From: Trypanosoma brucei
Lineage: Eukaryota
Reading direction: 5' to 3'
Length of the DNA stretch: 64,000 nt
Assembly (NCBI GenBank): GCA_000002445.1
Contig: CM000208.1
Coordinates: forward strand, 3,456,001 to 3,520,000
The notes beneath the pieces were generated by a model. The model was not told the origin of the DNA. It saw only the letters and a list, made by a program, of their open reading frames with translations, and did not search any database. How positions within the stretch are numbered: the first letter of the stretch is position 1; each line of letters opens with the position of its first letter. Shown in pieces: positions 2,314 to 56,723 of the stretch. The position numbers and the translations under genes are program-made.

Positions 2314-3298
2314 TATATCCTATCTGCAGCTATGATTCCTTTTAGGTGAGGTATACAGCATGCAAGTTTAATGCCGCGACCTCACACCTACGGTGGGAAG
2401 GGGAAGAAAATGTAACACTTAAATAAGGAGATGAAATCCAAAGGCAAAAAAGAGTAGGGATGGACAGCAACATCAATTATAGAAACAACAACAAACCTTT
2501 GCTTCAAACGAGTTAATGTAGGTGTCACGCAAATAAACACATGTATAACGACGGCTCGACACTCACGACCAACAGCAACATTCATTTGAAGTTCTGTGGC
2601 TACGCTTCGCTTCTCAAAACCCCAGGAGAGGATGTCACAAATGCAAACACACCGGTAACAACAACAGTTAACAGTAAATTCTCGGCTAAAACAAGGAAAA
2701 CGCAAGAAGCAAAAAATGGGATAGAAGGGAAGAAGAATATGTCAAAATTGAAACAGTAACAAATCAGCAAAAAAAAGAAAAGTACATACCTCGCCATCTA
2801 GGAGCACCACTGCACGTGCGGCATCACTCTATCGTGTATTTTACTTTGAAAAGAAAAGAACTTATCCTCTAGACGGAGTAGGCCGCATTTATATTATCGT
2901 GCGGTCTAACACATACGCATTTCACAGTTTCTTCCTGAGCCCCATGAACAGCTGTAATTTCCAAGCCGCTTTATACTCACCGGCGAAACCACATGCCTGA
3001 AAAAGGTTGAACGGAAACAGAAAAAATGAAAGCAATAACACCAAACAAGGAAAGGGACAGCGGGATAATTAAAAACAACAACAACAACAACAAACGAACA
3101 GACGAGCAAACGAAGGGTGCCGTTGAGCGCACAGGAAAAAATTGCCTCGGCCCCTAACACTCCCTTCTTCCACGGAAAAATATGTCCACAAACTTTGTGA
3201 CGCTTTGTATTTTAGTAATTATTTGTTTATATTCCTTCGTTTCTTTTGCGCCATACCACCGCCCTTCCCACAATACCCTCCTCCTTCATAGTACATCC

Positions 3299-6200
3299 TT
3301 AGATGCCCTCCATCTGACGACCTCCTTTAACACCGTCGTCCTTTGTATTATCGGTGATGTTGTCACCGCTGACAAATTCTGATAACCTCCTTCCATTGCT
3401 TTTACACACTGACTCAAGAAGATCACGTTCGACGAAGAACTGCGGTTCTGCGCCGTGCTTTACCATACTATCAATGACTCGCATCGCATCCGTTGACGCC
3501 TTCATGTTCTCATGATAGTGCCTTACTAGCAAGGCGAAGATGTCACCAATGCGAATGGAAGATGTTATGTCCGCATGGTCCTTGTGGCTCGGTCGGCTTC
3601 GCTTAACAAGATCAGAGCAGACTGCAATGAATTCCTTCGCCTGCTCCTCTCCCTTGCCGCTGTCAGCAAGAAGTTTCACCGCTTTTACCGCCTGTGCCAC
3701 GATATCACGGCGGACGCGCAACCCCTCCATCTTTCCTGTAATGTTAACATCACACATCGCATCTCGGTTACGCTCCACTTGGCCAATACACTCATCCAAG
3801 GCACACCATGCATCGTAGTAGTTCCGGTTTTCATCGATTTGCAACTGGGCGTACGAGTCTATATAAGAAATGAGGTTTGTGAACGCTTTTGAACGCGTAT
3901 AAAACAGCACAATATGTTTGTGAATGTTTGCGTCGGTGTGCCAGTTCTGTGACTGCAGGAAATTACCGGCGAGAGTGTAGATCTCCGTACTTCGTGAGTG
4001 GTTCGCGAAGAAAATAACCTTCTTTACGTCACCGCCGCGCATAAGCATTTTCATGGCCTTCACCCGCTCCCCTAATTGCGTATATTTTCTGCACGCAAGG
4101 TTCCAGTTGCCCTGATCCCTCGCAATACCAGCGATCTGCCGCTCCAATTCAGTCTTTTGATCATCCGAAAGCTGGCGCCTCTTCGCTTCAGCGGTGATGG
4201 CATCAGCCATTTCGTCGGTGAGGCCAACACCACGCTCCACACAAAGAGTGAGCGCAGAGGGGTATTCTCTCGCAAAAATATACATTTCTGCTGCTTTGGT
4301 GTAGTGGCCACTCTCTACAAAGTGAGAAGCCATTTGAAGAAAAACCTCTGCATCCTTTTCGGCGTTGAGAGTAGAGCTTATACGGTGCATAGCGTCATAC
4401 TGTTTCCCCTTAATGCACACGTCGATCGCCTTTTGTATGTCTCCTATACGATGATACAGATCCACTGACATTTCGTACACACCGTTATGTTCAAGGAATG
4501 CGGCACAGTCAAGCATTAGATGCGTGTCCTCACTGTTTTGAGCAATCGTTAACAACTCGCTGTGCCGCTCGTGCGACTTGGCCACTTTGGCAGCTGCCCG
4601 CCACGCACCAGCGTGTTGATAATATTTCAGCGCAGATGTTACGTCACCGTTACGTTCGTAGTGCTTGCCAACAAAGTACGCTGCACCAACTGGTTCGATG
4701 GATTGATTTGGCGATGACTGCATCAGCGGGGTCCTGGAACTCTCAGCTTCGCTGCGCCTCTTTTTAATCTCATTGTCTACAATATCAATGGCCTCCTGTG
4801 TTTTTGGTGGTGACTCGTTGAAAAGGAGTCGCACGGTGTTGAAGACATCCCCAGCGAGAGTGTAAAAGTTCGTTGCCTCGCTGAATTTCTTTCGACGCTC
4901 AGCCTGCCGCGCCCACCAATGCAGGAGCTCAGGGTTGTGCGCAAAGAGCTTCTGCAAGATGGGCTGCACTTGGTTGTCGTCATGACCTCTATCATCGCTT
5001 TTCGGATTTCCCCCGGCGCTTGCCGCTCGTACCTCTCCGTCACCTGCAATACCAACACTTTTTGGGTCGGTGAGACTGCTGGCGGGATTCGCTGGTGCTT
5101 CTGCCTCCGCGTTTGACCTGCCTTTGTCAACCGTTGCAACCTCCGCCGATTCTCTCTTCTTCTCAGGCGGTGTCACCAAAAGACGGAGATCAGAGAGGCG
5201 ACCGTTCTGGAAGTACAAACGTACAACGTCCGTGTCAAGGCACCTTGCATTGCAATACCACATCACCGCCGCATCAAAGTTGGAGAAGGACTCCATAAAC
5301 TGGGCGTACTTGTACGCGACTGGGTACACGCGAATGCGGTCGTGCTCACGTGCGTGACGTTGCGCCTGCTCAAACTTTCCACAAGCAATGAAGAGATCGG
5401 TAATCAAGTCGAACCGTTTTGCTTTTCGCAGTAGTTCCTCACATTCCCTCACAAGACCGAGGCTGCAAGCAAGTGTGGCAACCTGTACCTCCTTTTCACC
5501 AGGGTAGTTCGTTCGAGCAACACGAAGGGCGCTTGCAGCAACACCATCTTGCATTTGCGCCAAGCAAACACTAGCAACGTCCAATCGACCGGAGGCAACG
5601 CACATCTTTGCGAGGCTCTGCCAAACGGTGGCAGTCTTAATCGTCTTAACACATCGGTAGGCCTCATCCATATTCCCGACTGTTGAGTAATAGCTAAATT
5701 TCATGAGAGCCTCCAACACTGCCGCGTCCTTTTCAGTCTTCAATCCCTCAAAGTCCCGAAGCCGCTTCTGTTCAATCATGTAGTCCTCCGGATTGCCAGG
5801 GTCGCCGTTAATGCGAACCGAAGTAAGTAAGAAGTCAGGGATCGTTAGGCCAACCAGACATATGTGATATCGCTTCAGTTCCACGGAGTTGTGCACCACA
5901 AGACCTCTGTTGGTTGCGAAAAGTGTTACAAGGTTGTGCGAGCGGTGGGCAAGTGGGTTCACTGCGCTGAAGCCATTTTCAGCGTCCTCAGCGGCCGATT
6001 TGCCTTTTGCGTCCGCAAAGTTCTCCAGATCAGGCATCGCGCCATTAGTTGCCTCTTTGCTCTTAGATTCGGTCGGTTGAGATGTCCTTTTCGGAGAACG
6101 CACACCGCTTTCCCTGTGTTCTGGTGGGCTACAAGTGTCCCTGCCATCGACGTTCCCTTGAGGTCCCGTGGGTTTTTGTTCATCAGGCTGGGAAACGCCC

Positions 6201-26920: not shown

Positions 26921-28629
26921 AAATTTTGAGCAACACAGCACCAAGTACAGCCAGTAATTAGCCAACAAAAAAAAACACAAACAAAATTGGGCAGTCAGTC
27001 GAAAGAAAAGAAAATAAATAAATAGAGTGTTCCCGGTGAGACACACTGCGATTTTCTCTTTTTTTAACCCATCAGATTTTTTTTGGGGGGGGAGTAGGGA
27101 CTCATTGTTTGTGATGGATGAGGGTTTTTTTTTTTATTTGTCACCCATACGCTACTTCATTTTTCTCTCAAAACCAAAAAAAAAAAAGAAATTTTCTCCC
27201 GATTTTTTTTCTTACTCCCTCCCTCTCGCACGCTTTTGGTATCGAATTTACTTTTAAGTGTACAAAAAAACCCAGACGCTTCATCTGCGACTCGAGCAAA
27301 CGGGGAAAGGGAGAAAAATTGAGTAAAAAGAAAAATAAGAAAGAAAATAACAATAATAACAATGACGATGATGATGATGATAACGATAATGGTAGGCAAC
27401 TATACTATAAAGAGACGAAACGGCAGCAGCAGGAAAAAAAAAAAGGCATGAACCATCCCTCAATTCCTTTCACTCACTCATTCATTTATTTATTCATTCT
27501 CACCCTCATCCTCCACACCCTTCTCTCCCCCTCTGTAAAAACATGCCTCCTCCTCCCTTATGTTCTCCTTCTTTCTTTCTTTCCTTCTTATTTTTTAAAA
27601 AAAATTTTCATCATGAAAAAAAAAAAACAAAGAAAGGAGTAGGAACAGTGGATAGATTTGAAGAAGAGAAAAGACAAAAAGAAAGAGAAAGAGAACAACT
27701 ACACGGTATGTGAAAAGAGTTGAAGATAAAATATTTGCATGGCATCTTGAAGTTGAAATGATCCCAAAGTTTGATGGCATAAGGGATCGCGAGCTGTACA
27801 CAAACACACATATTTTGCATGCATTTGCCTTTGTGTATTTTCCCCCATGCCTGCGCAAGTAATGGCTGAGGCAACTGTAACGATTATTATAATGGGATAA
27901 TGGCAACCCGATACGGTAACACACAGGCACACACACACACAAAAAAAAAAATAATAATAATAGTACTAATAATGTGCTCGCCGCATTATTCTCTTTTTCC
28001 TTTTTTTTTTCCTCTCCCGTTTAGGAACGGTGTGTGTTTCTCGTTCCATCATCTAATAATCGCATCTTTCCCAAAGTTTTTTTTTTCATTTTATCCTTCT
28101 TTTTCTTCACTCTCTCCTCCTTCCTCTGAAGAAACCTCCTCATTCACACAAAACCATCAACGCAAACAAAAGCACAAAATAGACAATAATCACACACCAC
28201 AAGAGAACAACAATAAATGTAATTTGTAGCATTGACGAACGCGCCTTTTTCTTTTTCTTTCTTTCTGTTTTTTTTTCCCCCTCCCCCTCTCATTATTTTA
28301 TTTGGTGTTATGCTGTTGCTGTTGCTGTTGCTGTTGTTGTTGTTTTCCTTCTCTTGACAGCTCCTTCGCCTTCCCTCCCAATGCCATCGTTCCGTGCCTT
28401 CTCATTACCCCTCATCATCATCATCATTATCATTACTATCACATAGAAACCCATATATAATTTCCAGCCAAAAAGAAAAAGAAAAAAGAAAGATTCTCCC
28501 CTTCCCCCCTGATCCTAAAAAAGAAAAAAGAAATTCCTTTTGATGTTTTCTTTTTCTTTCTTCTGCCCCACCACTTTTCATTTCCTTTTTTTTTTAAATT
28601 CGCGTTCTCCTCCTCCGGTCGCATGAATG

Positions 28630-28641
28630 CATATATATATG

Positions 28642-28672
<31 letters not shown>
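28630..28672. repeat. (TA)n microsatellite
   Basis: Direct read: atatatatatgtatatataatatatatatatatatatatata. Confidence 0.8.
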
Positions 28673-31047
28673 CATACATAATCTGTTTAATTTATTTTTT
28701 TTATTTTGCCTATTCCTTTTCTCTTTACCAACTTTGAAAAATATTGTAAAAGAAAAAAAAAAGAAAAAAGGTACAAAGCTGAAGACATACTTTGCTAAAC
28801 AGGTGTTCACCGCTTCGACACTCACCTTTTGCTTATGTTCTCATTTTTTCCTTCCATCCCTTCCTCATTTCTTTTTGTCTTTTTTTTTTCTTTTCTTCCT
28901 TTTCCCTTTCTTTATGCATTTCATATGATAAATAGAAATAAATAAGCATATGAATACGAATACGAATAAATAAACAATCTTTCTTCTTCCTTTCTGCCCA
29001 AACACTGAGTTGTTTACCTCATCTTGTTTGCGTTGCTTTCACACGCCCTTTTCTTTTCCTCTTTTCTCTTATTTTCTTTTTCCCATTTTCGCTTGATGAG
29101 AAAACAAATATCGACGACAACAAAAGAAAAAAAAATTGTGCTCTTTTCTCTTCTCTTCCCTTCACCTTCTTTTTTTTTTCTTTTCTTTCTTTCCTTCACT
29201 TGTACTGTTCAGGAAGTCATTCATTTTCACACCTTATGATTATCTCTTTCACCACGTGCAGATATGTACTAATAACCAAAGTAATAAAGACAATAACATG
29301 AAGCATATGATCGAGTAATGCGCCTCGGTTTTCCCCTTTCTTGCGCTTCTTTAATATATTTTTTTATGTTTTTTTTTTCCTCCTCCTCTTCCTGATCTCC
29401 ATTTTTTTTTTCTTTTTTTCCTTTTTCCTTTTTTCCTTTTTTTTTTTAACTTCCATTTTCATGAATCAGGCAATTGCGAAGAGAAATAATGAAAGAGAAA
29501 CACACAAACACACAAGGAAAGGGATAAACAAAAAAAACGAAAAAAAAAAAGAAGACAACAAAGTGAAACAGAAAAGAAAAAAGAAAAAAAAGGACAAGTG
29601 CAGATTTCATAATCTCAGTGGGTAAAAAAAAAAAAACTTTACCATTTCATCTCCCTTTTTCTGTTCCGACTTTTTCTTTTCATCCTGATTAGAACACAAA
29701 ACGTAAAAAGATATTAACTGTAGACGAAACAATATGAGAAAAAAAGAAAGAAAGAAAAAGGAAGAAAAAAAAAAGAGAAAAGGGATAAAACTTACATTTT
29801 GAAGAAAACAAAACATAGAAAGAGAAAAAAAAAAGAAACGAAAACAAGAAAAAAAAAAGAAGAGCTATGGCACATTCTTGTTTGTTTATTTGTTTGTGTG
29901 TGCGCTAAATCAATAACAAAACACAATAAAAGTGTTTCCACCACTTCAATCAACAGGCGAAAGGGAGACAGATGAGGGGAAAATATTTTAAAAAAAAAAC
30001 AAGGACAGAGAAGGAAAGGGAGCGAGGCAAAAAGAAAAAAAAAGACAAACAAACAATAATCAATCATTACAAGTCGTATTAACAATAATAAAAAGGTGAC
30101 ACCATTACTAATAAGTAATAATCATCATAATAATCTTAGTAGTAACAATAAAACATTAATACTAACAACAACAACATTAAACAATAGCAATAACAACAAC
30201 AATAATGATAATGATAATAACAATAACCATAGAAAACGTACTGTTACAAATTCATTTTCTCCCCTCCTCCCTTCCTTCTTCCTTCTCCATTGGTATCATT
30301 TGAAAAACAAATTGGAAGAGGAAAAAGAAAAATAAAAAGGGAAAACATATTGCGGTTGTTTCATTACTTCTGTCTATGTGCACCTTTTCCAAATCCCTTC
30401 AAACAAACATATTCTTCCGTTATTCTTTTGAGAATTGTCCCTTTTATTTGCCGTTTTCTTTACTTATTTCCCTTTCACTCCGTGTTTTACATTTCATATT
30501 ATTTTATTTTTATTTTTATTTTTTGCTTCATTACTTTTTTCTTTTTCTCTTCCTTCATTCTGTCCCGTTTTTTTTTTTGACAATTTTACAAAAAAAAAGA
30601 AAAAAAGAAAAAGTTTTCCTACATTGTCCCTTCTTCGTTTCTCCATTCGTTAACTCCAAGCCCTTTTCCTTCCCTTTTTTTGTTTGTTTTTCTCCCGCCG
30701 TGTCCCACAACATCTTCTTTTGTTTCTTCCACCGCGCTCCCCTCCTCTACAAAATATTTGTTATAAATCGTTGCATAAACAAAAACAAAACAACAAAAAA
30801 CAAACAAACAAACAACAACAACCAAAGAAAAAAAAGAAAGAAAAATGATTTTCCTCACACCATTCATCTCCCCTCATCAGCCCACCTCTCGCCTAAACAA
30901 AAAAAAAAACAGTAAAGTCATAAAATATCAACAACAGTAACAATAGTAGAAGTAATAGTAGAAGTAATAATAGAAGTAATAATAATAATAATGAGAGTAA
31001 TAATAGTACTAACAATATTAACACTGATATTTCTTAATAATAAAAAA

Positions 31048-33232: not shown

Positions 33233-33236
<4 letters not shown>

Positions 33237-33270
<34 letters not shown>
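33237..33270. repeat. (TA)n microsatellite
   Basis: Direct read: tatatatatatatatatatatatatatata followed by tttatataaatatatataaataaatat. Confidence 0.8.
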
Positions 33271-33276
<6 letters not shown>

Positions 33277-36200
33277 AATATATATAAATAAATATTTCTT
33301 TCTCTCACTGTACCTCTACCCTTTTAAACATTTCCCAACAACCACTGGGCTCAATAGAAAAAAAAAAAGTGACAACAACGGTATTATCACCGTGAAAAAG
33401 AGAAAGAAAAAGATATGGTAAAAAAAAACATAAATACAAATATAAATAGAAAGAAGGTGGGGAATAATTTAAAAAAAAACTGAAAGAAAAAAAGAAAAAA
33501 ACAAGGGGAAAGAAGTCAAATCCAAAAGACGTTAACGGTGAAATAACACAAATTGGAAGAAAAGATAAAAATGAAGATAAATGGGACTTTTATAATTTAA
33601 TAAAAGAAAAAAAACAACAAAGGAGACATTTTATTTTGCTTCACCGGCTTTCTTTTCTTTTTCCTGCTTTCATGGGAGAAGGAAGGACGAAGGAAAGAGA
33701 AACTTTACAAAAAAAAAAAAGAAACGAAAACGAAAAATTAAAAAAAACAAAAAAAAACAAAAAGCAAAAGGGAATGGAAAAAGTGACACCAGGCGACAAA
33801 GTGGAAAATGAGAAGAAGATAAAAGACAAAAAAACAGAAGGGAGAAGAGGAGGGGAACAAAAAGCAAAAACGTAATATCGCTCGAATAAAAATAAAAATA
33901 GAAACATAATTTTTTTTAAAAAAAAGAAGAGAGTCAACAAAGAGAAAAGTAGAAAAACAAAAAGTTAACAAAAACAAAAAAAATCATAGCGTGGACCCCA
34001 AGGGAAACTATTCTGTACTGTGCTTTTATTCATTTGGTTCACTTTCCTCCCTTGTCAAAGCGTCACCATAACGGTGACAACAAACGGTAGAACGCGATAA
34101 TAATAATAATAATAATAACAGTAATAATAATAATAATTGAACTCATATTTTAGTGCACGCGTGCGTGTGAGTGCAGGTTTAGGTTTGTGTACGCGTGAAC
34201 ACTTATTAATATTATATTTTAAAGGGTTGTTATTATTATCGTTGGTGTTAATATCGTTAGCATTATCATCATTATTATTAGGATCGAAGGAGCAAAACAA
34301 AAATATTTCGAAACATCAACAACAACAAAAAAAAAAAGGGAACTCTGGATAGGACCACGGGAGTTTAAACGGGGAGGATGGAAAAAAAACAAAAATAAAG
34401 AAGAAAAAGAGAGAAAACGGTGGATCTAGTGGAAATGGATGCCAAATAAACAAACAAATATATATATATATTGGTAATGGTATTGATATTGATATTGATA
34501 TATTGATATATTTAATAAAATGGAAAAAGCAAATAACAAGAAAGAGCAAAAGTGAAGACTATCAGACAACAACGACAACAAATGAAAGAATGAAATAAAA
34601 TCAAAAACTATAAAATTTTTAAAAAATTAAAAAAAGGAACTACAGAGACTTATGTGACGAATGAAGGAGCGAAGTGGGCGAACAGGAGCAGCATTAGCTG
34701 GCATACACACATACACATATGTTAATATGTAAATATGTAAATATATAAATTAAATACTAACCTAATATATAAACATATATGTACTTACCGGCACGTAAGC
34801 GTAGACATAGTTCCCTCACGCCCACAGCCCCTACTTCAAACATAAACATATATCCGTAGCACATATAATATTATATTTATATATACAAACATACATATAT
34901 ACGAAATAAGGTCATCCATCACCACTTCCATCAATATCTTTTTTTCTTTTCTTTTCTTATTTCATTGTGCTTTTGAGTTTCTCTCCCCCTCGCTTTTTTT
35001 TTCTTTTTTAACCTTTTGATTTGTTCGTTTGTTTCTCATTCTTTTTTTTTTCCTCCTACTCCCCCCCCCCTCTCCCTTTTTCCCGTAGTAAAGATTATTA
35101 TTATTATTATTTCTTTTTTTTTCCTCTCCCTCTCTCTCTCTCTTCACAGAAAATACAGTAAGGCACACATCTCCCCACTCACAGCACTAAACACAAAAGA
35201 GAGATTTTTCCTTTTTTTTTTGTTTTTTTGTAAAAGGAAAAAAAATGTACATACCAAAAACTAAAACAAAAAGAACAATAATAAAGAAAAAGTGAACGAA
35301 AACGAAAACAATGAGCGACAAGCGTAAACTTAATAAATAAAAAAAATGAAAAAAAATGAAAAATGAAAAAACAGACAAAAACCTCTTCGTGTTATTCCCC
35401 GTCCTCAGACCTCATTCTCATCATCTCACCACACAAATTTTCGCCACTTAAACGCCAGCTGTACTTTCGCCCCCTCCCCCCCCCCCAAAGAAAAAAATAT
35501 AAATATAAATATAAATAAAAATATTAATATTAATATTAACTTCGCGGTGTCACAAACTTCCCTTCTTCCTTTTCTCTCCTTTTCGTATCGAATACCTTCG
35601 CACAAACACACACATATAAATACATATAAAAAAAACGAAAAAAAAAAAATATATATATATATGTATATTTCGTACACGGTGGCATCCCTACTACAAATAT
35701 TTGAGAAGAACAAAACAAGAAAAAAACCTTTGTGTATTCCTCTTTTTTCCTTCTTGGTTATTTTAATTTTTTTAAAAAAAAATTATTTATTTATCGATCT
35801 CTGCATTGTCTTCACCGAATCGCGCACGCTTCATTCTTTTCCTTTGAAATCATTTTAAAAAAAAAACTCGAAATTGTTTCGTATGCGCTTGCGGGCTCTC
35901 ACGCCCCTCCCCCCAAACAGAGAAACCAACTAAAGTTTAAAACAAATGACAATAGTTTCTGTGCATATTTTCCCTCTCCTTAACAAGTACAAGAAAAAAC
36001 AAAAAAAAAAAAAGAAAAGCACACATTCACACACTTTGGTCGCCGCAAATGTGATTTCCATCCCCTTCGTTCTCCTTCCTTTCCCCCTTCTCTCCTTTTC
36101 TATCTTGGAAAAAAAAAATAATAATAAAACAAAATAAAGTAAAATAAAGTAAACAGTTTAATTATCTTCCCCCTTTTCACCCCACACACCCACACCGCAC

Positions 36201-47685: not shown

Positions 47686-48486
47686 TTAAGCAGCCACCAT
47701 CTTCCTTCCCATAGAGAGGAACTCGGAGTGCTCGTCGGTGGGGTCGCGCGACACCTCCGTCTCCGCCCAGAGGTCGGGGGTAAGGAAGCCGTATGTCTTG
47801 CGCAGTGCATAGAATGTGGCCATGATGAAATTACCACGCGTACGCGTCTTACCACATGAGCTAGTATATACGTCCTCAACGCCGGCAAACTCAAGAATCT
47901 TCTTCGGCACAGGCGCAGCAACGATACCAGCACCACGTGGAGCAGGGATCAAGCGAACGGCAACGGAGCCGCACTTCCCGGTTACCTTGATAGGGATTGT
48001 ATGCGGTTCACCGATCTTGTTACCCCAGTAGCCACGGCGCACAGGCACAATACTCAGCTTCGCAGCGATCATTGACGCACGGATGGCCAGGGACACCTCC
48101 TTGCCGACGCGGGCGCCGACACCAATGTGGCCGTTACCGTCACCAACAACATTGAAGGCCTTGAAGCGTGTGCGCTGTCCGGCAGACGTTGCCTTCTGCA
48201 CGGGGAAAACAAGCATCATCTCATCACGGAGGTCGCCTTCGCGGATCAGTTGGTCCACGATCTGATGCTCTTTGATGGGCATCGAGAAGAGGAAGATTTC
48301 CTCCAGCGAGGTGATCTTTTGATCCTTCACAAGGCGGCCAAGTTTTGTGCATGGCACCCATTCCTTCTCATCACCACCACCGCCACGACCGCCACGACCA
48401 CCGCGACCGCCGCGACCGCCACGTCCGCCACGGCCACGACCGAAGCCGCGCTGCTCGCCACCTGTACCGCGTGGTGCGTCAGCCAT
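47686..48486 (-). CDS. RPS2: 40S ribosomal protein S2 (uS5) with an N-terminal (GRG)n tract, 266 aa
   Basis: ATG at 48486. N-terminal [16 protein letters not shown], followed by a conserved S5 domain ([31 protein letters not shown]...[15 protein letters not shown]...[38 protein letters not shown]). Confidence 0.92.
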
Positions 48487-48968
48487 TCTCGGTTCAACTA
48501 TGACAGCTTATCGTTTCAAATAACGGAGGAAAAAGCAATAAAAAGAGCAAAGACAAATTTTTTAAAAAAAAAACGAAAGAAGGTGCTGCAGTGATCAAGG
48601 GAAAGGGAACCTCAAAAAGGGAATGAAGTACGCCGACGCCCACAGACAAACATACGTAGTCAAAAATTAATCAGAACGCCTTCTAATCGCAGAGATCGCT
48701 CGGTGAAAGCCACCCGAGTAGCTAGCAGCATGCTAGAAGATATTGTACATCTGTCTCCCCGCGAAAGGGAAAAAAAAACATACAAATAAACATATATACA
48801 CGCTATAATACAGTTCCTTCGACCTCGTCTATTCCCCTGAACTCTATTACCACTACAGTTCCACTCTCTCAATTTTTCCAACACTTAATTTGTGATAATG
48901 AAAAAGTTGGGGAACCCTAACTTCAGGAATATATATGTATGAGTATTTTCACCGGCGTGCCCTCACTC

Positions 48969-51900
48969 CTACACCGTTGCGACTACCTGCGTTAGATGCT
49001 CCATGCGGCGAGCGGTGAGTGTGGCCTCCAGTTGGCCGAGGGCATCCTCGGCATCTACAGCGCCATCGAAGCGCAAAAGCACACCGAGGTCGACAAACAA
49101 CAAACTCTTTATTTGCCGTATAACCTCCGCCAACACCGGAAGGTGCGACTCCATTTCCAGCTTGCGGCTCCACAAGGAGAGTAGCTCTAATCTAGTGGCA
49201 TTGGAACGCAACAACTCAGCGAAATTCAGCAACTCACCCGCAGTAAAAGGGTTGTCAGACACAATAAGTTCCTGCAGAGACGCCAGTACTTCGTCTGGGA
49301 AAGCTTTAGCATCAGCCACTTCGGCATTCTTAATACTAAGAAACCTGAGGCCTGACGGCTTGAGGAACTTAAAGGCTGCCGATACACCCACTGCCCCGAG
49401 AGGTATTTGATCAAGCGACAATCTCTCCAGTGTTCCCTTACACCGAGATAGTAGGCATCCGAGTGCACCACCACCTTCAGCACCACCCAGGTTGTTACGG
49501 GACAACTGTAACTCCCGCAACACAAAGTTGCCTTCCGGGGATGCTCCGGACCACTTCAGAATGTGCTCTGGTCCCAATTCATTGCCATTAAGATGAAGGA
49601 TATCCAAACGGCTGCATAATCTACCCAGTGCCTCGACTTCATCGTCACCCCAACACTGGGAGAGGTCGTTAAAACCTAATAACAGTGTTGTGATATTACC
49701 AGCAGCAACTGCAGACAAAAGTTCAAAAAAACAGGAAGACTTGGAACCCTCTTGGTTGACGTCCGGGCACTCCGATGAATCGGGTAGTCCCTCCCCCAAT
49801 ACCTCCGTACCCGCTTCATGAGACAGCTCGACAAACCCAATGCGATTACCCTCAAGTGAAAGCGAAGTAATCGTCTTGTTGGTACACAAACTCTCAGCCA
49901 GTGCGCGGATGGTTTCCGGGTACATGTCATTGTACGCTAGATCAAGCACCTTAAGCGTGTTATTGCGACGAAGAGCCGCGAAGAGAGAAGAACAACCGGG
50001 CGTAACACCGCTGGGCACATCCACGACACTCGGCGCAACTGCCTCATCCCCATCGCTTGCAACATCTTCAACTACCTTTGCCGCGCGCTTCCTCCCGAAG
50101 ACATTGCGGCGCAAAAGAAGGCACTCTACCGTCTTATTTTCCGCGAGGACGTTTCCGATATGCTTCATTCCGTGGCTTCCAATCTGGCAACTTCCAAGGT
50201 CCAGTACTCGAAGGAAAGGAACGCAGCGTTTTTGTGAAGTAACGGGTATACTCCATTTTCCGAGAACATCCAGAAGCGCCGATATTTCCTCCTCTATGTT
50301 ATTGACATCCCCTTCTCCATCCGGGCTGGGTATGTGCTGATCATCTTCGTGCACCACCGGTTCCTGTTCTTCGTCCCCCCCGTGCTGGTCCTCGTCAAAT
50401 TCCCCACCATAATCACTTGCTGCGCCAAAAGTGGCTGTTTCGTCAATAGCCAAGACGTCTGCACTTGCCCTTGAGTTCCCTGTAATCCACGCCTTAAAGG
50501 TTTGTAACCACAAGAGGTACTCAGATTGCATCCGGTCACGCTCGCGCGACTCCTCAACCAGCGTCCTCTTGTAATCTACTGTCAATTTGTTGAGCAGTCG
50601 GTCCGCATCGTTCGACAAATCCTTTTGGATACGCTCTTCCTCCTCCTCCTCAAGCTGTAACTCGTGCCGTAACGCAGAGGCTAAAGCAACAGCACCTTTA
50701 TTCCCAATGGGGTTGCCACGCAGACGAAGGACCTGTATGTGTGACCACCCGCTCCGGCGCCTGCAGTACTTGTCAATCTCAACACGTTTTTCTTCAGCCA
50801 ATTCCTCACGGATGATGGCGTGCTCCTCCATCAGCAATGAAGCCTCACGTACATATTGATTAGCACAACCCCGGCGTAACTCCCTCTCCTCCTTGTATAA
50901 CCTACGAAATAGGCGGTTGAACTTCCTCTCTAGATGTGGTGGAAGGGGTTTGGGCTTCCCTTCTCCCTCTTCATCCTCCTCCTCTTCTTCTTCCTCCTCC
51001 CCTTCCTCTTCCGCATCCCCGTCAGCCGCGTCCTCCTGCTGCTCCTCATTCCCTTCATCCTCTTCATCCTCCTCGTCGTCATTTTCATTATCCGACCCAT
51101 CTTTCATTAGTGGTGAACCACCTTCCTGTGTGCCATCTTGGTCGGTGCCCTCTTCCTCCACGGGGTCCTCTACTTCCTCGTCATCTTCAAAATCATCCCC
51201 TTCATCCTCTTCTTCATCCTGGCCAATAAAAAAGGAAACGGATTCAAGACCAACACCATCATCCTCCTCGTCCACAACAGCATCTTCCTCCCCATCTTGC
51301 ACATCCTGAGGATAGAGCCGTGTGTCAGACTTCACGAGGGCTTCCAGCAGCTGCTGCGCCGTTATCCCATTGATGTTATTATTATTAAGGTTCAGGTCGA
51401 CAACGAACTTATTAAACTTAATAAATTCGACAAGTTGCGCTAACGCATCGCTGTCATCCTTCGTCAGACCTAAGTCATTGCCTTCAAGATCCAGAACGCG
51501 AATCATCGTATCCTTCAGCATCGGCAGCAGTGACTCAGCAACCCGACCAAACTTTGTGTTGGGCAAACCCAACACCTCAAGCTCCTTTGCTCCATGAAAA
51601 AAATTCTGGAAATCGTCAATTGAAGAACCTTCAACGAACTCACCGGAAACTGTAAGGGAACGAAGATGCCCCAACATACGGTGGTTTGCACATATAACGG
51701 TAAAAATGTCATGAATCGCAACAGTTTTCGCCGGTGCTAACATGAGAGTGACATGTCGCATATTATCCGATGTCCTGTAGTCTTTGGATTGCGCCTCCGT
51801 TCGTACAATGTGATTAAGAAAATCCACTATTTGATCTGAGGGAAGCTGAACATTCGAAAGAGCTTCGGGTGACGGAAACGCATTCCATATGTGTGAGGTA

Positions 51901-52280
51901 TGGTAACCTACAAGTGGCTGACCTCTTGGAGTCGTACAGCGGACCTCATCCTCAACATTCGCAACAAGTGGTTGGGTACCGTTAGAAAAAACGCGCGCGG
52001 CAGAACAACTACTGCATGGCCACCATGCCAAATTAGATCTAGAACATACAATAGACGCGTTGAACCGTAAAATTGAACACTCCACTTCCCGCGCCACCTC
52101 CGCCTCAAGAGCCTTGGCTGCAATGCCGTGTTGGGCCGCGATATCACCCTTTACTTTCGCACTGTTTACCCGTGGAGGAGCAGCAGCAACTCCACTTTCT
52201 GCGGCACAACTCCCCAAATGCAAACTATCAAACTGCACAGCATCGTCGGCGGAGGAAAATGTACACCATGATCGTGACAT
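48969..52280 (-). CDS. Leucine-rich repeat (RNI/ribonuclease-inhibitor-like) protein with a long acidic E/D tract (1103 aa)
   Basis: The track start 52283 is GTG; the ATG is at 52280. There are many LxxLxLxxNxIG units (LRVLDLEGNDLG, LKVLDLAYNDMYPETIRALAESLCTNKTITSLSLEGNRIG, LDILHLNGNELG and others). A poly-E/D block sits at about 50950-51300. Confidence 0.6.
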   Translation of the reverse strand: MSRSWCTFSSADDAVQFDSLHLGSCAAESGVAAAPPRVNSAKVKGDIAAQHGIAAKALEAEVAREVECSILRFNASIVCSRSNLAWWPCSSCSAARVFSNGTQPLVANVEDEVRCTTPRGQPLVGYHTSHIWNAFPSPEALSNVQLPSDQIVDFLNHIVRTEAQSKDYRTSDNMRHVTLMLAPAKTVAIHDIFTVICANHRMLGHLRSLTVSGEFVEGSSIDDFQNFFHGAKELEVLGLPNTKFGRVAESLLPMLKDTMIRVLDLEGNDLGLTKDDSDALAQLVEFIKFNKFVVDLNLNNNNINGITAQQLLEALVKSDTRLYPQDVQDGEEDAVVDEEDDGVGLESVSFFIGQDEEEDEGDDFEDDEEVEDPVEEEGTDQDGTQEGGSPLMKDGSDNENDDEEDEEDEGNEEQQEDAADGDAEEEGEEEEEEEEDEEGEGKPKPLPPHLERKFNRLFRRLYKEERELRRGCANQYVREASLLMEEHAIIREELAEEKRVEIDKYCRRRSGWSHIQVLRLRGNPIGNKGAVALASALRHELQLEEEEEERIQKDLSNDADRLLNKLTVDYKRTLVEESRERDRMQSEYLLWLQTFKAWITGNSRASADVLAIDETATFGAASDYGGEFDEDQHGGDEEQEPVVHEDDQHIPSPDGEGDVNNIEEEISALLDVLGKWSIPVTSQKRCVPFLRVLDLGSCQIGSHGMKHIGNVLAENKTVECLLLRRNVFGRKRAAKVVEDVASDGDEAVAPSVVDVPSGVTPGCSSLFAALRRNNTLKVLDLAYNDMYPETIRALAESLCTNKTITSLSLEGNRIGFVELSHEAGTEVLGEGLPDSSECPDVNQEGSKSSCFFELLSAVAAGNITTLLLGFNDLSQCWGDDEVEALGRLCSRLDILHLNGNELGPEHILKWSGASPEGNFVLRELQLSRNNLGGAEGGGALGCLLSRCKGTLERLSLDQIPLGAVGVSAAFKFLKPSGLRFLSIKNAEVADAKAFPDEVLASLQELIVSDNPFTAGELLNFAELLRSNATRLELLSLWSRKLEMESHLPVLAEVIRQIKSLLFVDLGVLLRFDGAVDAEDALGQLEATLTARRMEHLTQVVATV

Positions 52281-52570
52281 CACAAATATATTTACTCCTA
52301 TCTTACACAGGTAACAATCAGGTCACAACAAGGTAAAAAAGAAAAAGAAAAATAACTAAACTACCAACAAACACACCAAAGTACAAACCGTACATAACTC
52401 TGATTAACATATGCTACGAACCTTCATGCATCACCAAATAAAAAAAATAACAAACAAAAAGACACATTAACCAGAATTTTTAAAAAAAAACAAAAATAAA
52501 AATATACATAAACTAGGATCACCAACAAAAAAAATTATCATACAAAGCAACAACACAACATCTAAACTAT

Positions 52571-52726
52571 TTACCATGAATTAACGACCAACTTAAATAT
52601 TGCCTCCCCTTCGGGATTCTTGTCAGGATGTAACTCGAGCGCCTTCAGTTTGTAAGCCTCTCGTATTCCGTCCTTAGACGCAGTCCTTGGAACCCCCAGG
52701 ATCGCATAATAGTCCGCCTGCTGCAT
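52571..52726 (-). pseudogene. Orphan J-domain fragment (51 codons with intact HPD, truncated in helix III)
   Basis: Minus-strand ATG at 52726 gives [51 protein letters not shown] and then TAA at 52573..52571. This is the canonical J-domain helix I-II plus the HPD loop. It is too short for the ORF track cutoff. There is no continuation in any frame downstream. Confidence 0.4.
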
Positions 52727-53275
52727 ACCGTACTTTTTCCCTTCCCTTTCTCAGCAGTAATAAGGGAGAAGTGCAGTGGTAAAAGAAGTAGAAATAAAAT
52801 AAGAGACAGCGACTTTAAGAAGCAGCAACAGACTCATAGATCCAACAAGACAATCAATAGCGAGCTCGGCAAGCACGTAAGCACCGCCCCCATTTACACA
52901 CAAGAAAAAGGAAACATATACTCCGTTGCTTACACGGTCAAGGGGGAAGGATCATAGGGAAACCAGGCAAGCAAAGCCACAATACGTTTCGCCCCACTAT
53001 CGGCAGGGTAAACCACCACATATTAAAGACGAACAGGAAGACATGGAGACAACACGCCACGCACAGAAGCCACACCCAACGTATATAAGTGCGCGAGTCC
53101 CATCTTCTCACACTAGCCATCTATTACATTCAATACTGCATAGGACAAGGGCGTACAGAGAAAATTCAAGCAACCATTCTGAACCGGTTATCCAACAAAT
53201 AAAAATATGCTGCATTCCCTTAACCATCCACACCACAGCATCCTAAAAGGAATGACGGTAACGCACTACGTATGT

Positions 53276-54433
53276 CTATTCACCGTTCCGCCGTCTCTCC
53301 TCCTCTATCGCATCTTCCCATTCAAGATCCTCCATTATGCTCTCCGACTGCCGCAGTGCAGCTGGAAGGCGCGAAAGGACGAAGCCTACTGCGCAAAGTA
53401 ACACAATGGTCTCACCCCACAGTCCAATATATTCCTGCATGAAGTCCAGCCACGAAATTATCACACGGTATTTAAACGTTCCAAGCGTCATCTCCTGTCC
53501 CCATCCACCACTGCGAGCACTGGTATACCGCATATGCTCTGGAGGCTTTATCCCATAGAGAAGATAGTAATTACGTGCCTCAGGGTTCACAAGAATGTCG
53601 TATGCATCCTTCAGCTCCTCAAGAACCATCGACCGGTCTTCCTCATTCTTCTCCGTCTCTTCCACTAATTTCTTTTTTGTTTCGTATGCTCTCTTCAGTT
53701 CAGTGGGGTCGACTGAGCGTGCGTCCTTCGTATCCTTCGTGTCCAGCAAAACACTGAAAAGTTCACGGTCTACCTGAGAGGCAAGGCGATTGTACGCAAG
53801 CTCCACCTGTTGATTATTGGCTTCGCACGCACGACCACAGTGAACCAGCTGCCCTCGCGCATCCTGATGTTCTTTATACGCCTTACGGATTTCCTGCCGG
53901 ATGCGGTAGTTCTCCCGCCGTCGTTCCTTGTCAAGGTCCTCTCCACCTGCCTCATCAGCAGCAGCTCCGGTAGATTTCGGACGGATTCTCCCCTTCACAC
54001 CCAATATTTCGTAATAGCTCTCCGCTTCACTTGGAGTGACGGCACCATCATGAGTCGGATTGACCTCACCGAACCCTTTGCCACTCTCAATCTGAGGTGG
54101 CTCCAGGTTAAACTCCACGTCATACTTCGCTAACGCAAGCAACGAAATGGCAATCACTACCGCTACGGAGAAAAAAATGCGAAACATAGAGCCAGAATTT
54201 TCATGCTCGCCTACGACAGCATCCCACTCGGCTTGAGTGATTATACCACGGTTGGGGTCCCGTCGAGAGTAGCGGTTGGTATTAGCAAACCGTGAATTGG
54301 GCCGCTGCACACCATACATGGCGTTGTGCCGTGCAAACACATCCTCCCGAGCAGCACGAGCCGCGCTCTCCTCCAGCTTGTTACGCCGCTCCTGAGCCTG
54401 CTGCTGCCGTATTTGCGCTGCTCGAGGTATCAT
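53276..54433 (-). CDS. J-like (degenerate DnaJ domain) membrane protein, hypothetical (385 aa)
   Basis: The track start 54442 is TTG; the ATG is at 54433. It carries ESYYEILGV...IRKAYKEHQDA (HPD replaced by HQD), then LEELKDAYDILVNPEARNYYLLYG (J helix III/IV-like) after an insertion. There are two hydrophobic segments (FFSVAVVIAISLLALA and IVLLCAVGFVLSRL). Confidence 0.5.
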   Translation of the reverse strand: MIPRAAQIRQQQAQERRNKLEESAARAAREDVFARHNAMYGVQRPNSRFANTNRYSRRDPNRGIITQAEWDAVVGEHENSGSMFRIFFSVAVVIAISLLALAKYDVEFNLEPPQIESGKGFGEVNPTHDGAVTPSEAESYYEILGVKGRIRPKSTGAAADEAGGEDLDKERRRENYRIRQEIRKAYKEHQDARGQLVHCGRACEANNQQVELAYNRLASQVDRELFSVLLDTKDTKDARSVDPTELKRAYETKKKLVEETEKNEEDRSMVLEELKDAYDILVNPEARNYYLLYGIKPPEHMRYTSARSGGWGQEMTLGTFKYRVIISWLDFMQEYIGLWGETIVLLCAVGFVLSRLPAALRQSESIMEDLEWEDAIEEERRRNGE

Positions 54434-54943
54434 ACTTAGCAACTTAGAGCTACACTCCCCATTAGTAACAAATTAAAAACAGGATTCAAGGAAGAAGAGG
54501 GGGAAAAAAAAAAGAAACGGTGATACGACGGGGAAAATAATCGAAGGAAAGCAGTTTGGTGCGGAAATAGGATTGCGCAAACAATCGCAATGTAGTCGCC
54601 CACATACCACACAGTCAGTTACGTCCCTGTTATTACGTAAAATGATTAACGTCGATCATATAAATGATTTCATTATTCTTTTATTTTCCCCCACTCATAC
54701 AGAAAACTTCCATTTACTTCCGTTGCATATTCATCTTTCTTCTCTTGCCTTATAATAGTTTTTCTCGCTGTTATTCGCTGGTCCCTTCTTAATGTTCGTT
54801 TCCCCTCCCCACTCCAACCCGGGCGTAGGAAACGTGAAACACAAACATATAATCTCAGATCACACAGTCAGACAAAGAGCTCCCCACGCAGCCTCTCCCA
54901 CCAAACGTGGCTTTCCTACATCCTTTTGTCCACATTCCTATTC

Positions 54944-55663
54944 CTATTGCGGGGGGGATTTGTAGTAACCTGTAACCACAGCGTGGTCACGCTCGAACGG
55001 TTCCAGCGAGGCCTGTTCCTTCGGTCTCAGCCCTGAGTCCTTCAGCTTCTGCACCTCCGATGCAAAAACAGTAGCAGAGTCCGCTGTCGAATCAATGCAA
55101 TTGGCCTTTATCGAAATAACAAAACCACCGTTCTGTTTCAAAAAGTGTTGTGCATTCAGAGCTAATATTCGCGCCTGGTCGGGTTGAGCAACATCCATAA
55201 AGATGCAGTCTACCAAACGCGGTATCAGCATCCGATATTTCTGCGGGTAGCGGGCATCCTCAAGGATCGGGACAATATTACTCCGACGTTTCGACATCTC
55301 CTCCAGGTCACGCCCGCTACGGTGTGAGAACTCCACAGCGTACACAACACCCTCCGGACCCACCAAATCAGACACATGACTAACAGTTGTCCCACTGGCA
55401 GCACCCAGGTATAACACTGTTGAGCCCGGTTCCATGTATATCTGAGCAACACCAGCGTAAATCGCCGCCGCAAGTTTCGACCGGTATGGATTCCACACGC
55501 GGAACTCGCAGGACTCGGTCTCTCCGGCAATTGTACCGCTTACGCGCTTCTCACCGTATATGGAGACACCAGGTACGAGTGACTTTGTGGCAAGAGTGTC
55601 TTTACCCGCAAGGAGGTAGCAGCCACGCATACGAGCATGGGGTTGAAATATGTTGCCCTTCAC
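54944..55663 (-). CDS. NOP1: Fibrillarin (NOP1) methyltransferase domain. The N-terminal GAR domain is absent or interrupted, and the start codon is uncertain
   Basis: There is a strong full-length match of the C-terminal two-thirds to fibrillarin ([65 protein letters not shown]...[39 protein letters not shown]). The track start 55663 is GTG, and the first ATG is at 55630 (MRGCYLL). Upstream in frame are the remnant GAR codons [12 protein letters not shown], preceded immediately by TAA at 55702..55700. Confidence 0.8.
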
Positions 55664-55817
55664 CCCACCGCCGGCTTTGCCTCCGCCTCGTCCGCCAAAT
55701 TATTATACTACCAGTTAATGAAAACATTAACAATTTCGGTGCTACAACATTGTTCTTACGATATCTTATTATTTTCTGATGGGCGATTGTACTGTACAGG
55801 AGTCGTGGGGGGTATAT

Positions 55818-55890
55818 ATGAGAAAAAAGAGAGAGGAAAAAGGATAGGGTGTCGACCGCAACAAAAAAAAAAAGCAAAAGCCGTCCAAAA
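55818..55890 (-). promoter_or_regulatory. Candidate polypyrimidine tract upstream of fibrillarin (polypurine on the plus strand)
   Basis: Plus strand reads gagaaaaaagagagaggaaaaaggatagg...acaaaaaaaaaaagcaaaag, so the minus strand is T/C-rich. It lies about 150-220 nt upstream of the fibrillarin ORF. Confidence 0.3.
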
Positions 55891-56060
55891 ATTATGAGCG
55901 TGTACAAAAATGATCCAAATCCTTTGGCAACCGAAGTATGTAAAAGAAATAGCTGAGGCGATAGGTAAACCCCCGAGCCATACCGATGTATTGTCTGCAA
56001 CACATTCGTAATGTTCGGTGACGATATGGACCCTTTCCCGTTACTCAGCATACTTCTACG

Positions 56061-56723
56061 TCACGTGTTTGAGCGCCCACGCTTCCTAAACACTCGGTGA
56101 AGGGAACGAAGTCTTCTATACTGTTTAACTTCATCACTTTCCTGATCCAGAATCAGGTGGACGGCGAAACTGGTTGCTCCACAAAACGGGCAAACCGATG
56201 CGGGATCGTCATCCACGGGGCAATCCTTTTTTGCAGCAGCTGGTTTCCCAACAGACTCATTCACCGCAGCGCAAGCCACAACGTGCCCGCAAGACCAAAA
56301 CCCAAGAAATTGGTGAAGACCTGAGGCAGAGTCATAACCTGTTACTGGGCACCGAATAAGCACCTTTCTGTCCTTCCCCTCCTCTACGTTCGACACCTCA
56401 CACACATCAGATAGTTTCGATATTTTCATATCGCTGTTCAAATCGCTACTGCTCTGCTTATGGAGTGAACGTTTCTCCAATATGTTATCCAACACCGCCT
56501 TCTTTGAATACAGGCGTCCATAAAGATCAAAAACAACCGGAAGCTGCAGCGGCTCCAGTGACAGACCACAATGCGACCACCGCAAAACCTTTTCCTCCTT
56601 TAATTTTCGCGTCGTTTCTCCTCCACCATTGTCCCCTTTCCGCAGCTCATCAGCGGTGAGGAACACACGTGACTTTTCTAATATCCGCCGCTTGTTTGAG
56701 AGTGCTTGGCCATCGCCGCCCAT
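56061..56723 (-). CDS. Rtf2-domain (replication termination factor 2-like RING-type zinc finger) protein, 220 aa
   Basis: ATG at 56723. WSHCGLSLEPLQLPVVFDLYGRLYSKKAVLDNILEK, then CPVTG...CGHVVACAAVNE...CPFCG, which matches the Rtf2 C2HC2 arrangement. Confidence 0.6.
   Translation of the reverse strand: MGGDGQALSNKRRILEKSRVFLTADELRKGDNGGGETTRKLKEEKVLRWSHCGLSLEPLQLPVVFDLYGRLYSKKAVLDNILEKRSLHKQSSSDLNSDMKISKLSDVCEVSNVEEGKDRKVLIRCPVTGYDSASGLHQFLGFWSCGHVVACAAVNESVGKPAAAKKDCPVDDDPASVCPFCGATSFAVHLILDQESDEVKQYRRLRSLHRVFRKRGRSNT

Follow-up and report, generated by a model that had tools for sequence, protein, structure and literature searches.

The window, i.e., the whole stretch of 64,000 nucleotides that was analyzed, is assigned by sequence identity to chromosome 10 of the Trypanosoma brucei group. 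It contains a gene for a fibrillarin methyltransferase on the minus strand, which corresponds to the existing gene model Tb927.10.14630; this identifier was taken from the gene table published by Jones et al. 2015 (PMC4689576). The features of the locus, all of them on the minus strand, are the following:

56061 to 56723, minus strand: Rtf2 RING-finger gene Tb927.10.14640, upstream neighbor at the recipient locus (Pfam PF04641, E = 3.2e-22)
55874 to 55863 and 55844 to 55820, minus strand: two polypyrimidine tracts in the Rtf2-side flank, predicted trans-splice acceptor region (script scan)
55602 to 55752, minus strand: three upstream ATGs in the predicted 5' UTR (script)
55664 to 55696, minus strand: remnant of Gly/Arg-rich (GAR) coding sequence, the last 10 to 11 GAR codons of the donor gene (alignment with two donor-locus records, L005 and L006, and Logan contigs)
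54944 to 55663, minus strand: fibrillarin methyltransferase ORF, in the ORF listing 239 aa with a GTG start at 55663
53276 to 54433, minus strand: complete duplicated gene for a hypothetical protein of 385 aa, Tb927.10.14620, a copy of Tb927.10.14740 (identifiers from the gene table in PMC4689576)
52571 to 52726, minus strand: DnaJ remnant, 3'-truncated, 51 codons, ending with ...KLVVNSW and a stop codon; from the sequence, the last two codons and the TAA stem from the flank
52576 to 55693, minus strand: duplicated block of 3,118 nt, a copy of the locus with fibrillarin2, the 385-aa gene and DnaJ (Tb927.10.14750 to Tb927.10.14730)
48969 to 52283, minus strand: leucine-rich-repeat (LRR) gene, 1103 to 1104 aa, downstream neighbor of the recipient locus

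The public model of the fibrillarin gene (Tb927.10.14630, XP_827942) comprises 228 aa and starts with the ATG at position 55630. The product that is encoded from this ATG is identical to the proteins annotated as "fibrillarin, putative" in TREU927 (EAN78830/XP_827942) and in T. b. gambiense (CBH16675), both of 228 aa. The protein encoded by the Rtf2 neighbor also had exact matches, in this case in TREU927 (EAN78831/XP_827943) and in T. equiperdum (SCU68236).

The region around the start of the fibrillarin gene was inspected on the minus strand. Two in-frame TAA codons follow directly upon one another (55705-55703 and 55702-55700), and after them come 12 codons (55699-55664) with the sequence TTT GGC GGA CGA GGC GGA GGC AAA GCC GGC GGT GGG. 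The first in-frame ATG of the ORF is located at 55630, and the stop codon at 54946-54944. An earlier note on this DNA, which was made from the letters alone, had described the TAA, the GAR-like codons, the GTG, the first ATG and an intact methyltransferase domain, and this description was accurate to the base. Read from the TAA, the ORF matched the Pfam profile PF01269 (Fibrillarin) with an E-value of 9.6e-100 and 332.8 bits, the curated cut-off being 27 bits, and the match covered positions 2-226 of the 227 profile positions. A phmmer search aligned the ORF with residues 73-318 of human FBL (7mq8; E = 2.4e-98), and a stretch of 17 residues with the SAM-binding motif was the same in both proteins. 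If the ATG at 55630 is taken as the start, about the first six positions of the PF01269 profile are gone. The GAR-less crystal constructs of human FBL begin at about query residue 15-17 in the alignment, and the ATG is located about 8 residues inside the segment that is aligned to these structured constructs. The product from ATG 55630 is without the GAR domain as well as without the first beta-strand of the fold. The full architecture of a eukaryotic fibrillarin was not found at this locus, i.e., 10 to 11 GAR codons are left, TAA TAA precedes them, and there is no in-frame ATG before 55630. A tblastn search and a pattern search revealed only this one copy, and no second fibrillarin copy or other GAR-coding DNA was found in the 64-kb window.

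Two further observations concern the neighborhood. First, a plus-strand ORF (55637-55897) crosses the duplication junction and the fibrillarin start, and in the gambiense record (L009, 9686-9994) a gene of 102 aa is called at this site; this gene model is almost certainly spurious. Second, the gene for the 40S ribosomal protein S2 (RPS2, uS5) is also duplicated, with one copy in the window (47686-48490, minus strand) and another just past the high end of the window (L009, 304-1108). The two copies are 99.6% identical, the homology is limited to the coding sequence and the 4 nt that precede the ATG, and the flanks are unrelated. Two RPS2 copies at the same relative positions were likewise found in T. 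vivax and T. melophagium, and, thus, the RPS2 pair is an old duplication with near-identical coding sequences. Low-complexity stretches of the window (33236-33285 and 28625-28676) match a simple repeat upstream of the other RPS2 copy (L005, 12441-12493).

Duplicated block and its breakpoints

Comparison by blastn revealed that positions 55693-52576 of the window correspond to positions 6166-9285 of L005 and L006, with an identity of 99.46-99.52% over 3120 columns, and that nothing on either side could be aligned. This donor locus is on the same strand as the copy; it lies about 16 kb upstream of it and just past the end of the window with the high coordinates. On the gambiense chromosome 10 (FN554973.1) the two loci are on the same strand, equivalent positions are 16,046 nt apart, and the spacer between the two 3.1-kb copies has about 12.9 kb, both distances being derived from the record ranges. 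In both donor records the gene order is kinase/CAP-Gly, clathrin light chain, FIB(304), 385-aa gene, DnaJ(443), SH3/PEX13 and RPS2. The flanks of the two loci are unrelated, i.e., the donor has the clathrin light chain gene upstream and the full DnaJ and PEX13 downstream, and the copy has Rtf2 upstream and the LRR gene downstream.

The donor protein (CBH16688 in gambiense, RHW68703 in T. b. equiperdum) has 304 aa, begins with MRGGRGGGRGAGGGGFGRGG, and has a core that is identical to the ORF in the window. Its GAR domain consists of 64 residues, and the remnant codons in the window encode the last residues of this domain. Three Logan short-read contigs match the window from 55693 downward at 99.2-99.4% identity, the matched part comprising over 300 nt of the 3' UTR, and upstream of the position equivalent to 55693 they run on in frame into a long GAR-coding stretch. 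Because the DNA identity to the full-length paralog is 99.2-99.5% from 55693 downward, the resemblance of the remnant codons to GAR is not due to chance.

At the 5' junction the alignment shows ...TATAATAATTTGGC in the copy and ...CGCGGAGGT in the donor, and both are followed by GGACGAGGCGG. The breakpoint is at 55693/55694. Should the C/T at 55694 have arisen later, it would be at 55696/55697; a microhomology of GGYGG is possible. The cut falls 10 to 11 codons before the end of the GAR domain of fibrillarin. The 12 residues in front of the GTG had been read as the tail of a GAR domain that was severed by an in-frame TAA. Ten of them, possibly together with the G directly before them, are indeed a true remnant, while the F and probably the first G stem from the unrelated flank. 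Similarly, the TAA is located directly before the GAR codons, but it belongs to the intergenic flank of the recipient locus and is not a mutated GAR codon. The DNA further upstream had been called unrelated, and in fact no similarity to the paralog was found above 55693.

The 3' breakpoint was found at 52576/52575. Here the copy reads ...GTTAAT(T/G)CAT followed by GGTAAATAG, and the donor reads ...AATGCAT followed by ACCAGATATTG and continues into the rest of DnaJ. In the copy, DnaJ is thus cut after codon 50 by the 3' end of the duplication. The block consists of a fibrillarin gene without a start, one complete gene of 385 aa, a DnaJ stump and two intergenic regions; it is collinear with the donor over coding and non-coding DNA at 99.5% identity, and its boundaries are sharp to within 1-3 nt. 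The two sharp cuts inside genes and the intergenic DNA inside the block therefore indicate a segmental duplication at the DNA level.

Taken together, the feature is very probably real and represents the 5'-truncated end of a partial segmental duplicate on chromosome 10 of the T. brucei group. A segment of 3,118 nt would have been copied in direct orientation into the intergenic region between Rtf2 and the LRR gene, about 16 kb downstream within the same polycistronic unit. As both ends of the copied block were inside genes, a start-less and GAR-less fibrillarin, a whole gene and a DnaJ stump would have been the result. The earlier note had offered three possibilities without a choice between them, i.e., a truncated paralog, a pseudogenized copy, and an assembly or recombination junction. 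Two of these readings apply at the same time: the gene is a truncated paralog, namely a heritable 5'-truncated copy of Tb927.10.14750, and there is a recombination junction inside the GAR-coding region, as 55693/55694 is the 5' breakpoint of the 3.1-kb segmental duplication. An assembly error, in contrast, did not hold (see below). The junction at fibrillarin had been recognized, but the wider block with the whole 385-aa gene and the 3'-cut DnaJ had been missed.

Distribution in the trypanosomatids

The block is present in three Trypanozoon assemblies, i.e., in the window, in gambiense and in T. equiperdum. In T. cruzi, in T. melophagium and in two assemblies of T. vivax, the LRR gene is the immediate downstream neighbor of Rtf2, and the spacers between these two genes (230-410 nt) do not contain any fibrillarin-like DNA in the three species. 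The intergenic halves of the recipient locus had only T-rich low-complexity matches to these spacers. As the recipient site of all three species is empty, the insertion is younger than the split from T. vivax; its age is bounded only by this split, as T. congolense is outside the comparison.

It had also been considered that orthologs could have the same short N-terminus as their normal form. Models of 228-245 aa do exist for T. cruzi, T. grayi and L. donovani, drawn from the same protein cluster at 90% identity, but all of them turned out to be artefacts when the respective DNA was read. The T. cruzi models of 228 aa (L007/L008, around 4770-5000) belong to the ancestral locus, at which a GAR with a frameshift of 1 nt is present in two long-read assemblies. 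The short T. grayi model (L016, 1-36) begins 36 nt from the end of the contig, and the short L. donovani model (L017, 4001-5179) is a spliced gene model that skips a full GAR encoded in the DNA. Thus, for these three species there is no genomic support for a conserved GAR-less paralog across the trypanosomatids.

Sequence evolution of the two copies

Three blocks with the truncated fibrillarin and two blocks with the full-length fibrillarin were compared, and no differences were found that are fixed between the paralogs. The two gambiense paralogs differ at 4 of 3120 positions, and 17 differences separate the window from gambiense when the orthologous truncated-copy blocks are compared; for the unique flanking DNA, the identity between these two is 98.9%. 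As the paralogs are closer to each other than the orthologs, this indicates gene conversion between the copies, i.e., the two copies evolve in concert.

Within the fibrillarin coding sequence, differences among copies and strains were found at the four positions 55646, 55577, 55496 and 55142. All of them are synonymous third-position transitions, and the probability of such a pattern (4/4) is about 0.012 under neutrality. The pattern could reflect purifying selection on the truncated copy, or, equally, variants that had first passed selection in the functional copy and were transferred afterwards by conversion. The ORF of 228 codons was open in every strain seen.

Three variants of the block are private to the window, i.e., T/C at 55646 (synonymous, fibrillarin), one at 53816 (third codon position, 385-aa gene), and T/G at 52579, which leads to an exchange of Ala to Ser in the DnaJ stump. 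This stump has the highest density of differences within the block, with 3 in about 150 nt.

Expression and coding potential of the truncated copy

Downstream of the two polypyrimidine tracts, AG dinucleotides are present at 55793, 55777, 55766, 55756, 55743 and 55709. During trans-splicing in trypanosomes the first AG after a polypyrimidine tract is used. The copy is predicted to be transcribed and trans-spliced, probably via the polypyrimidine tract and AG sites that pre-existed in the recipient region. The three upstream ATGs differ in their reading frames. The first, at 55750, is in frame with fibrillarin and encodes only ML and a stop codon; the second, at 55727, opens an ORF of 41 codons that runs across the main ATG to 55602; and the third, at 55638, opens an out-of-frame ORF of 32 codons. 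The sole possible product would be the one from ATG 55630, behind these three upstream AUGs.

Within the structural explanation, it is thus highly probable that the copy is a relic that is poorly or not translated, rather than a functional GAR-less protein, because the start is located behind three upstream AUGs and a product from it would lack the GAR domain and the first beta-strand. The status of a pseudogene is plausible. The reading frame would have stayed intact as a passive consequence of gene conversion by the functional copy, and the main biological effect of the duplication may be the direct repeat of 3.1 kb itself, which could mediate deletion or duplication of the 12.9-kb interval. 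Published tables of total and polysomal mRNA list near-equal values for Tb927.10.14630 and Tb927.10.14750. These values are no guide to expression, because they are read as the result of multi-mapping reads that were split between near-identical copies.

An unlikely alternative is that a methyltransferase of 228 aa is translated from ATG 55630 or from a non-AUG codon and has been retained by selection as a functional GAR-less paralog. Such a protein would join C/D snoRNPs, or act elsewhere, without the arginine-methylated targeting domain. The ORF is intact, its protein is identical to the fibrillarin2 core in all assemblies, and the coding sequences have four synonymous and no non-synonymous differences; all this would fit a retained gene, but the intact ORF is also accounted for by gene conversion with the functional copy as donor. 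Polypyrimidine and AG signals are present upstream of the truncated gene, but they are followed by the three upstream AUGs ahead of ATG 55630, and this start loses a part of the conserved fold. Archaeal fibrillarins and the crystal constructs of recombinant human FBL (PDB 2IPX, 7SE6) fold without GAR, showing that the core can fold alone. In contrast to the copy in the window, these GAR-less forms start about 8 residues before the position of ATG 55630, keep the first beta-strand, and are complete genes or designed constructs. Furthermore, the truncated fibrillarin is confined to the T. brucei lineage and absent in T. vivax, T. cruzi and T. melophagium, the other short models in the 90%-identity cluster are artefacts, and the truncation point is the breakpoint of a duplication whose other end also mutilates a gene, which argues for an accident. 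It is quite improbable that a GAR-less fibrillarin from ATG 55630 is coming into use in the T. brucei lineage and that the synonymous-only differences reflect selection on the copy itself. If so, the product might be a partner of C/D snoRNPs outside the nucleolus or with a regulatory role.

Other origins of the truncated gene

In contrast to a duplication, decay in situ would mean that a complete second fibrillarin gene was hit by a nonsense mutation and that its upstream part degenerated. The in-frame TAA directly before recognizable GAR codons is what such a process would leave behind, but at 55693/55694 an identity of about 99.5% is lost completely over about 3 nt, without any graded decay. 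In addition, the DNA upstream of the junction contains no trace of GAR or of the 5' UTR of the donor, and the downstream end of the block is equally sharp and cut inside DnaJ, so that this origin is very improbable.

An artefact of the assembly is still more improbable and can practically be dismissed. In this case the gene would be full length in reality, and its GAR region and start codon would have been lost through the collapse or mis-joining of a GGN repeat. GAR-coding DNA is indeed repetitive and rich in G+C, errors in or near GAR-type sequences are present in assemblies of T. cruzi, T. grayi and equiperdum OVI, and in the three Logan contigs mentioned above a full GAR is joined to a downstream sequence of 99.3% identity. 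However, these contigs are accounted for by the full-length paralog 16 kb away, and at the junction in the window the GAR tail is preceded by unique DNA rich in A+T, which is not a repeat collapse. Moreover, the identical junction was found, in contiguous sequence, in T. b. gambiense DAL972 (L009) and in the T. equiperdum scaffold (L004), in the latter case with only one SNP 17 nt upstream, and TREU927 has the same model of 228 aa. Two repeats of 3.1 kb are also reported from the read depth of Lister 427, in the account of the chromosome 10 repeats in PMC4689576. The suspicion of an assembly error or a collapsed repeat was therefore not borne out.

Several records of this region have peculiarities of their own. 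In the T. equiperdum scaffold L004 (GCA_001457755.2, CZPT02000935.1; 10149-11927) the full DnaJ of the donor locus and intergenic DNA are followed by a gap of 10 N and then by the DnaJ stump; this join is a mis-scaffold induced by the two copies of the 3.1-kb repeat, while the 5' junction of the same scaffold is clean. A search with the junction-spanning ORF of 149 aa (55602-56051) returned no Logan contigs with the junction of the window. In the Logan contig L010 (ERR7929156) an unrelated segment (1-4198) is joined to fibrillarin at the equivalent of 55680, which is 13 nt inside the breakpoint of the window, and this segment contains an opposite-strand ORF of about 1160 aa that resembles an AAA-ATPase. 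The join could be due to a chimeric assembly or to an engineered construct, or that sample could contain a third rearranged copy.

Retroposition of a fibrillarin mRNA typically yields 5'-truncated gene copies, but here it is as remote as an assembly artefact, as the block extends over two intergenic regions and comprises, besides fibrillarin, one complete gene and the beginning of DnaJ, and neither a poly(A) tail nor a target-site duplication was found at the junctions. A reassignment of stop codons as in Blastocrithidia was also considered and rejected: five stops are located between the in-frame ATG at 55750 and fibrillarin, the codons in between do not resemble GAR, the DNA is from T. brucei, and the neighboring genes have ordinary uninterrupted ORFs.

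Relation to known genes and repeats

The segmental duplication can be connected to published work. Jones et al. 2015 report two near-identical regions of about 3.1 kb that flank 12.9 kb on chromosome 10, list Tb927.10.14620/14630 and 14740/14750 as about 99% identical, and explain a hemizygous deletion, present in a Lister 427 clone after drug selection, by a crossover between the repeats (PMC4689576). In size (about 3.1 kb), identity (about 99%), distance (12.9 kb) and as a substrate of crossover these repeats are the pair described here. In contrast to the present analysis, they rest on read depth and gene lists, and the breakpoints in GAR and DnaJ are not described in the parts of that paper dealing with chromosome 10. 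The same paper also reports near-identical direct repeats of 4.8 kb for AdoMetDC/prozyme on chromosome 6 (PMC4689576). The database entries for Tb927.10.14630 (XP_827942.1/EAN78830.1 and CBH16675.1) represent the same gene, modeled from the first ATG and without mention of the GAR remnant or the breakpoint.

The earlier note had stated that trypanosomes carry several NOP1 copies. Three fibrillarin genes are located on chromosome 10. The donor is fibrillarin2 (Tb927.10.14750; 304 aa; CBH16688.1, RHW68703.1), which was localized to the nucleolus and the Cajal body (Budzak et al. 2022, PMC8748868). It shares the methyltransferase core, the 3' UTR and the downstream 385-aa gene with the copy, but it has its own ATG, a GAR of 64 residues and the clathrin light chain gene upstream, all three of which are missing from the copy in the window. 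The third gene is NOP1 (Tb927.10.7500, 300 aa), which has the same fold and belongs to the same family. However, it is only 71% identical, has its full length including GAR, is an old paralog of all trypanosomatids, and is outside of this duplication.

Both the gene model and the repeat pair are already on record, and the truncated gene is an ordinary by-product of segmental duplication. Added here are the breakpoints at the level of single bases and the evidence from outgroups that the recipient site was empty.

Consequences

For biology at large the finding matters little. For T. brucei, it explains why the databases list a "fibrillarin" of 228 aa beside one of 304 aa. As to the short "fibrillarin" models, those of T. 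cruzi, T. grayi and L. donovani arose from errors of annotation or assembly at the GAR-coding repeat. In short-read expression data as well as in ribosome-profiling, proteomic, RNAi and tagging data, Tb927.10.14630 and Tb927.10.14750 are inseparable. The "three fibrillarins" may in effect be two. The direct repeats of 3.1 kb represent a hotspot for deletion or amplification of the 12.9-kb interval, which contains RPS2, PEX13 and a Brix-domain gene, and, according to the account of the chromosome 10 deletion in PMC4689576, the loss of this interval has already been seen in a drug-selected line.
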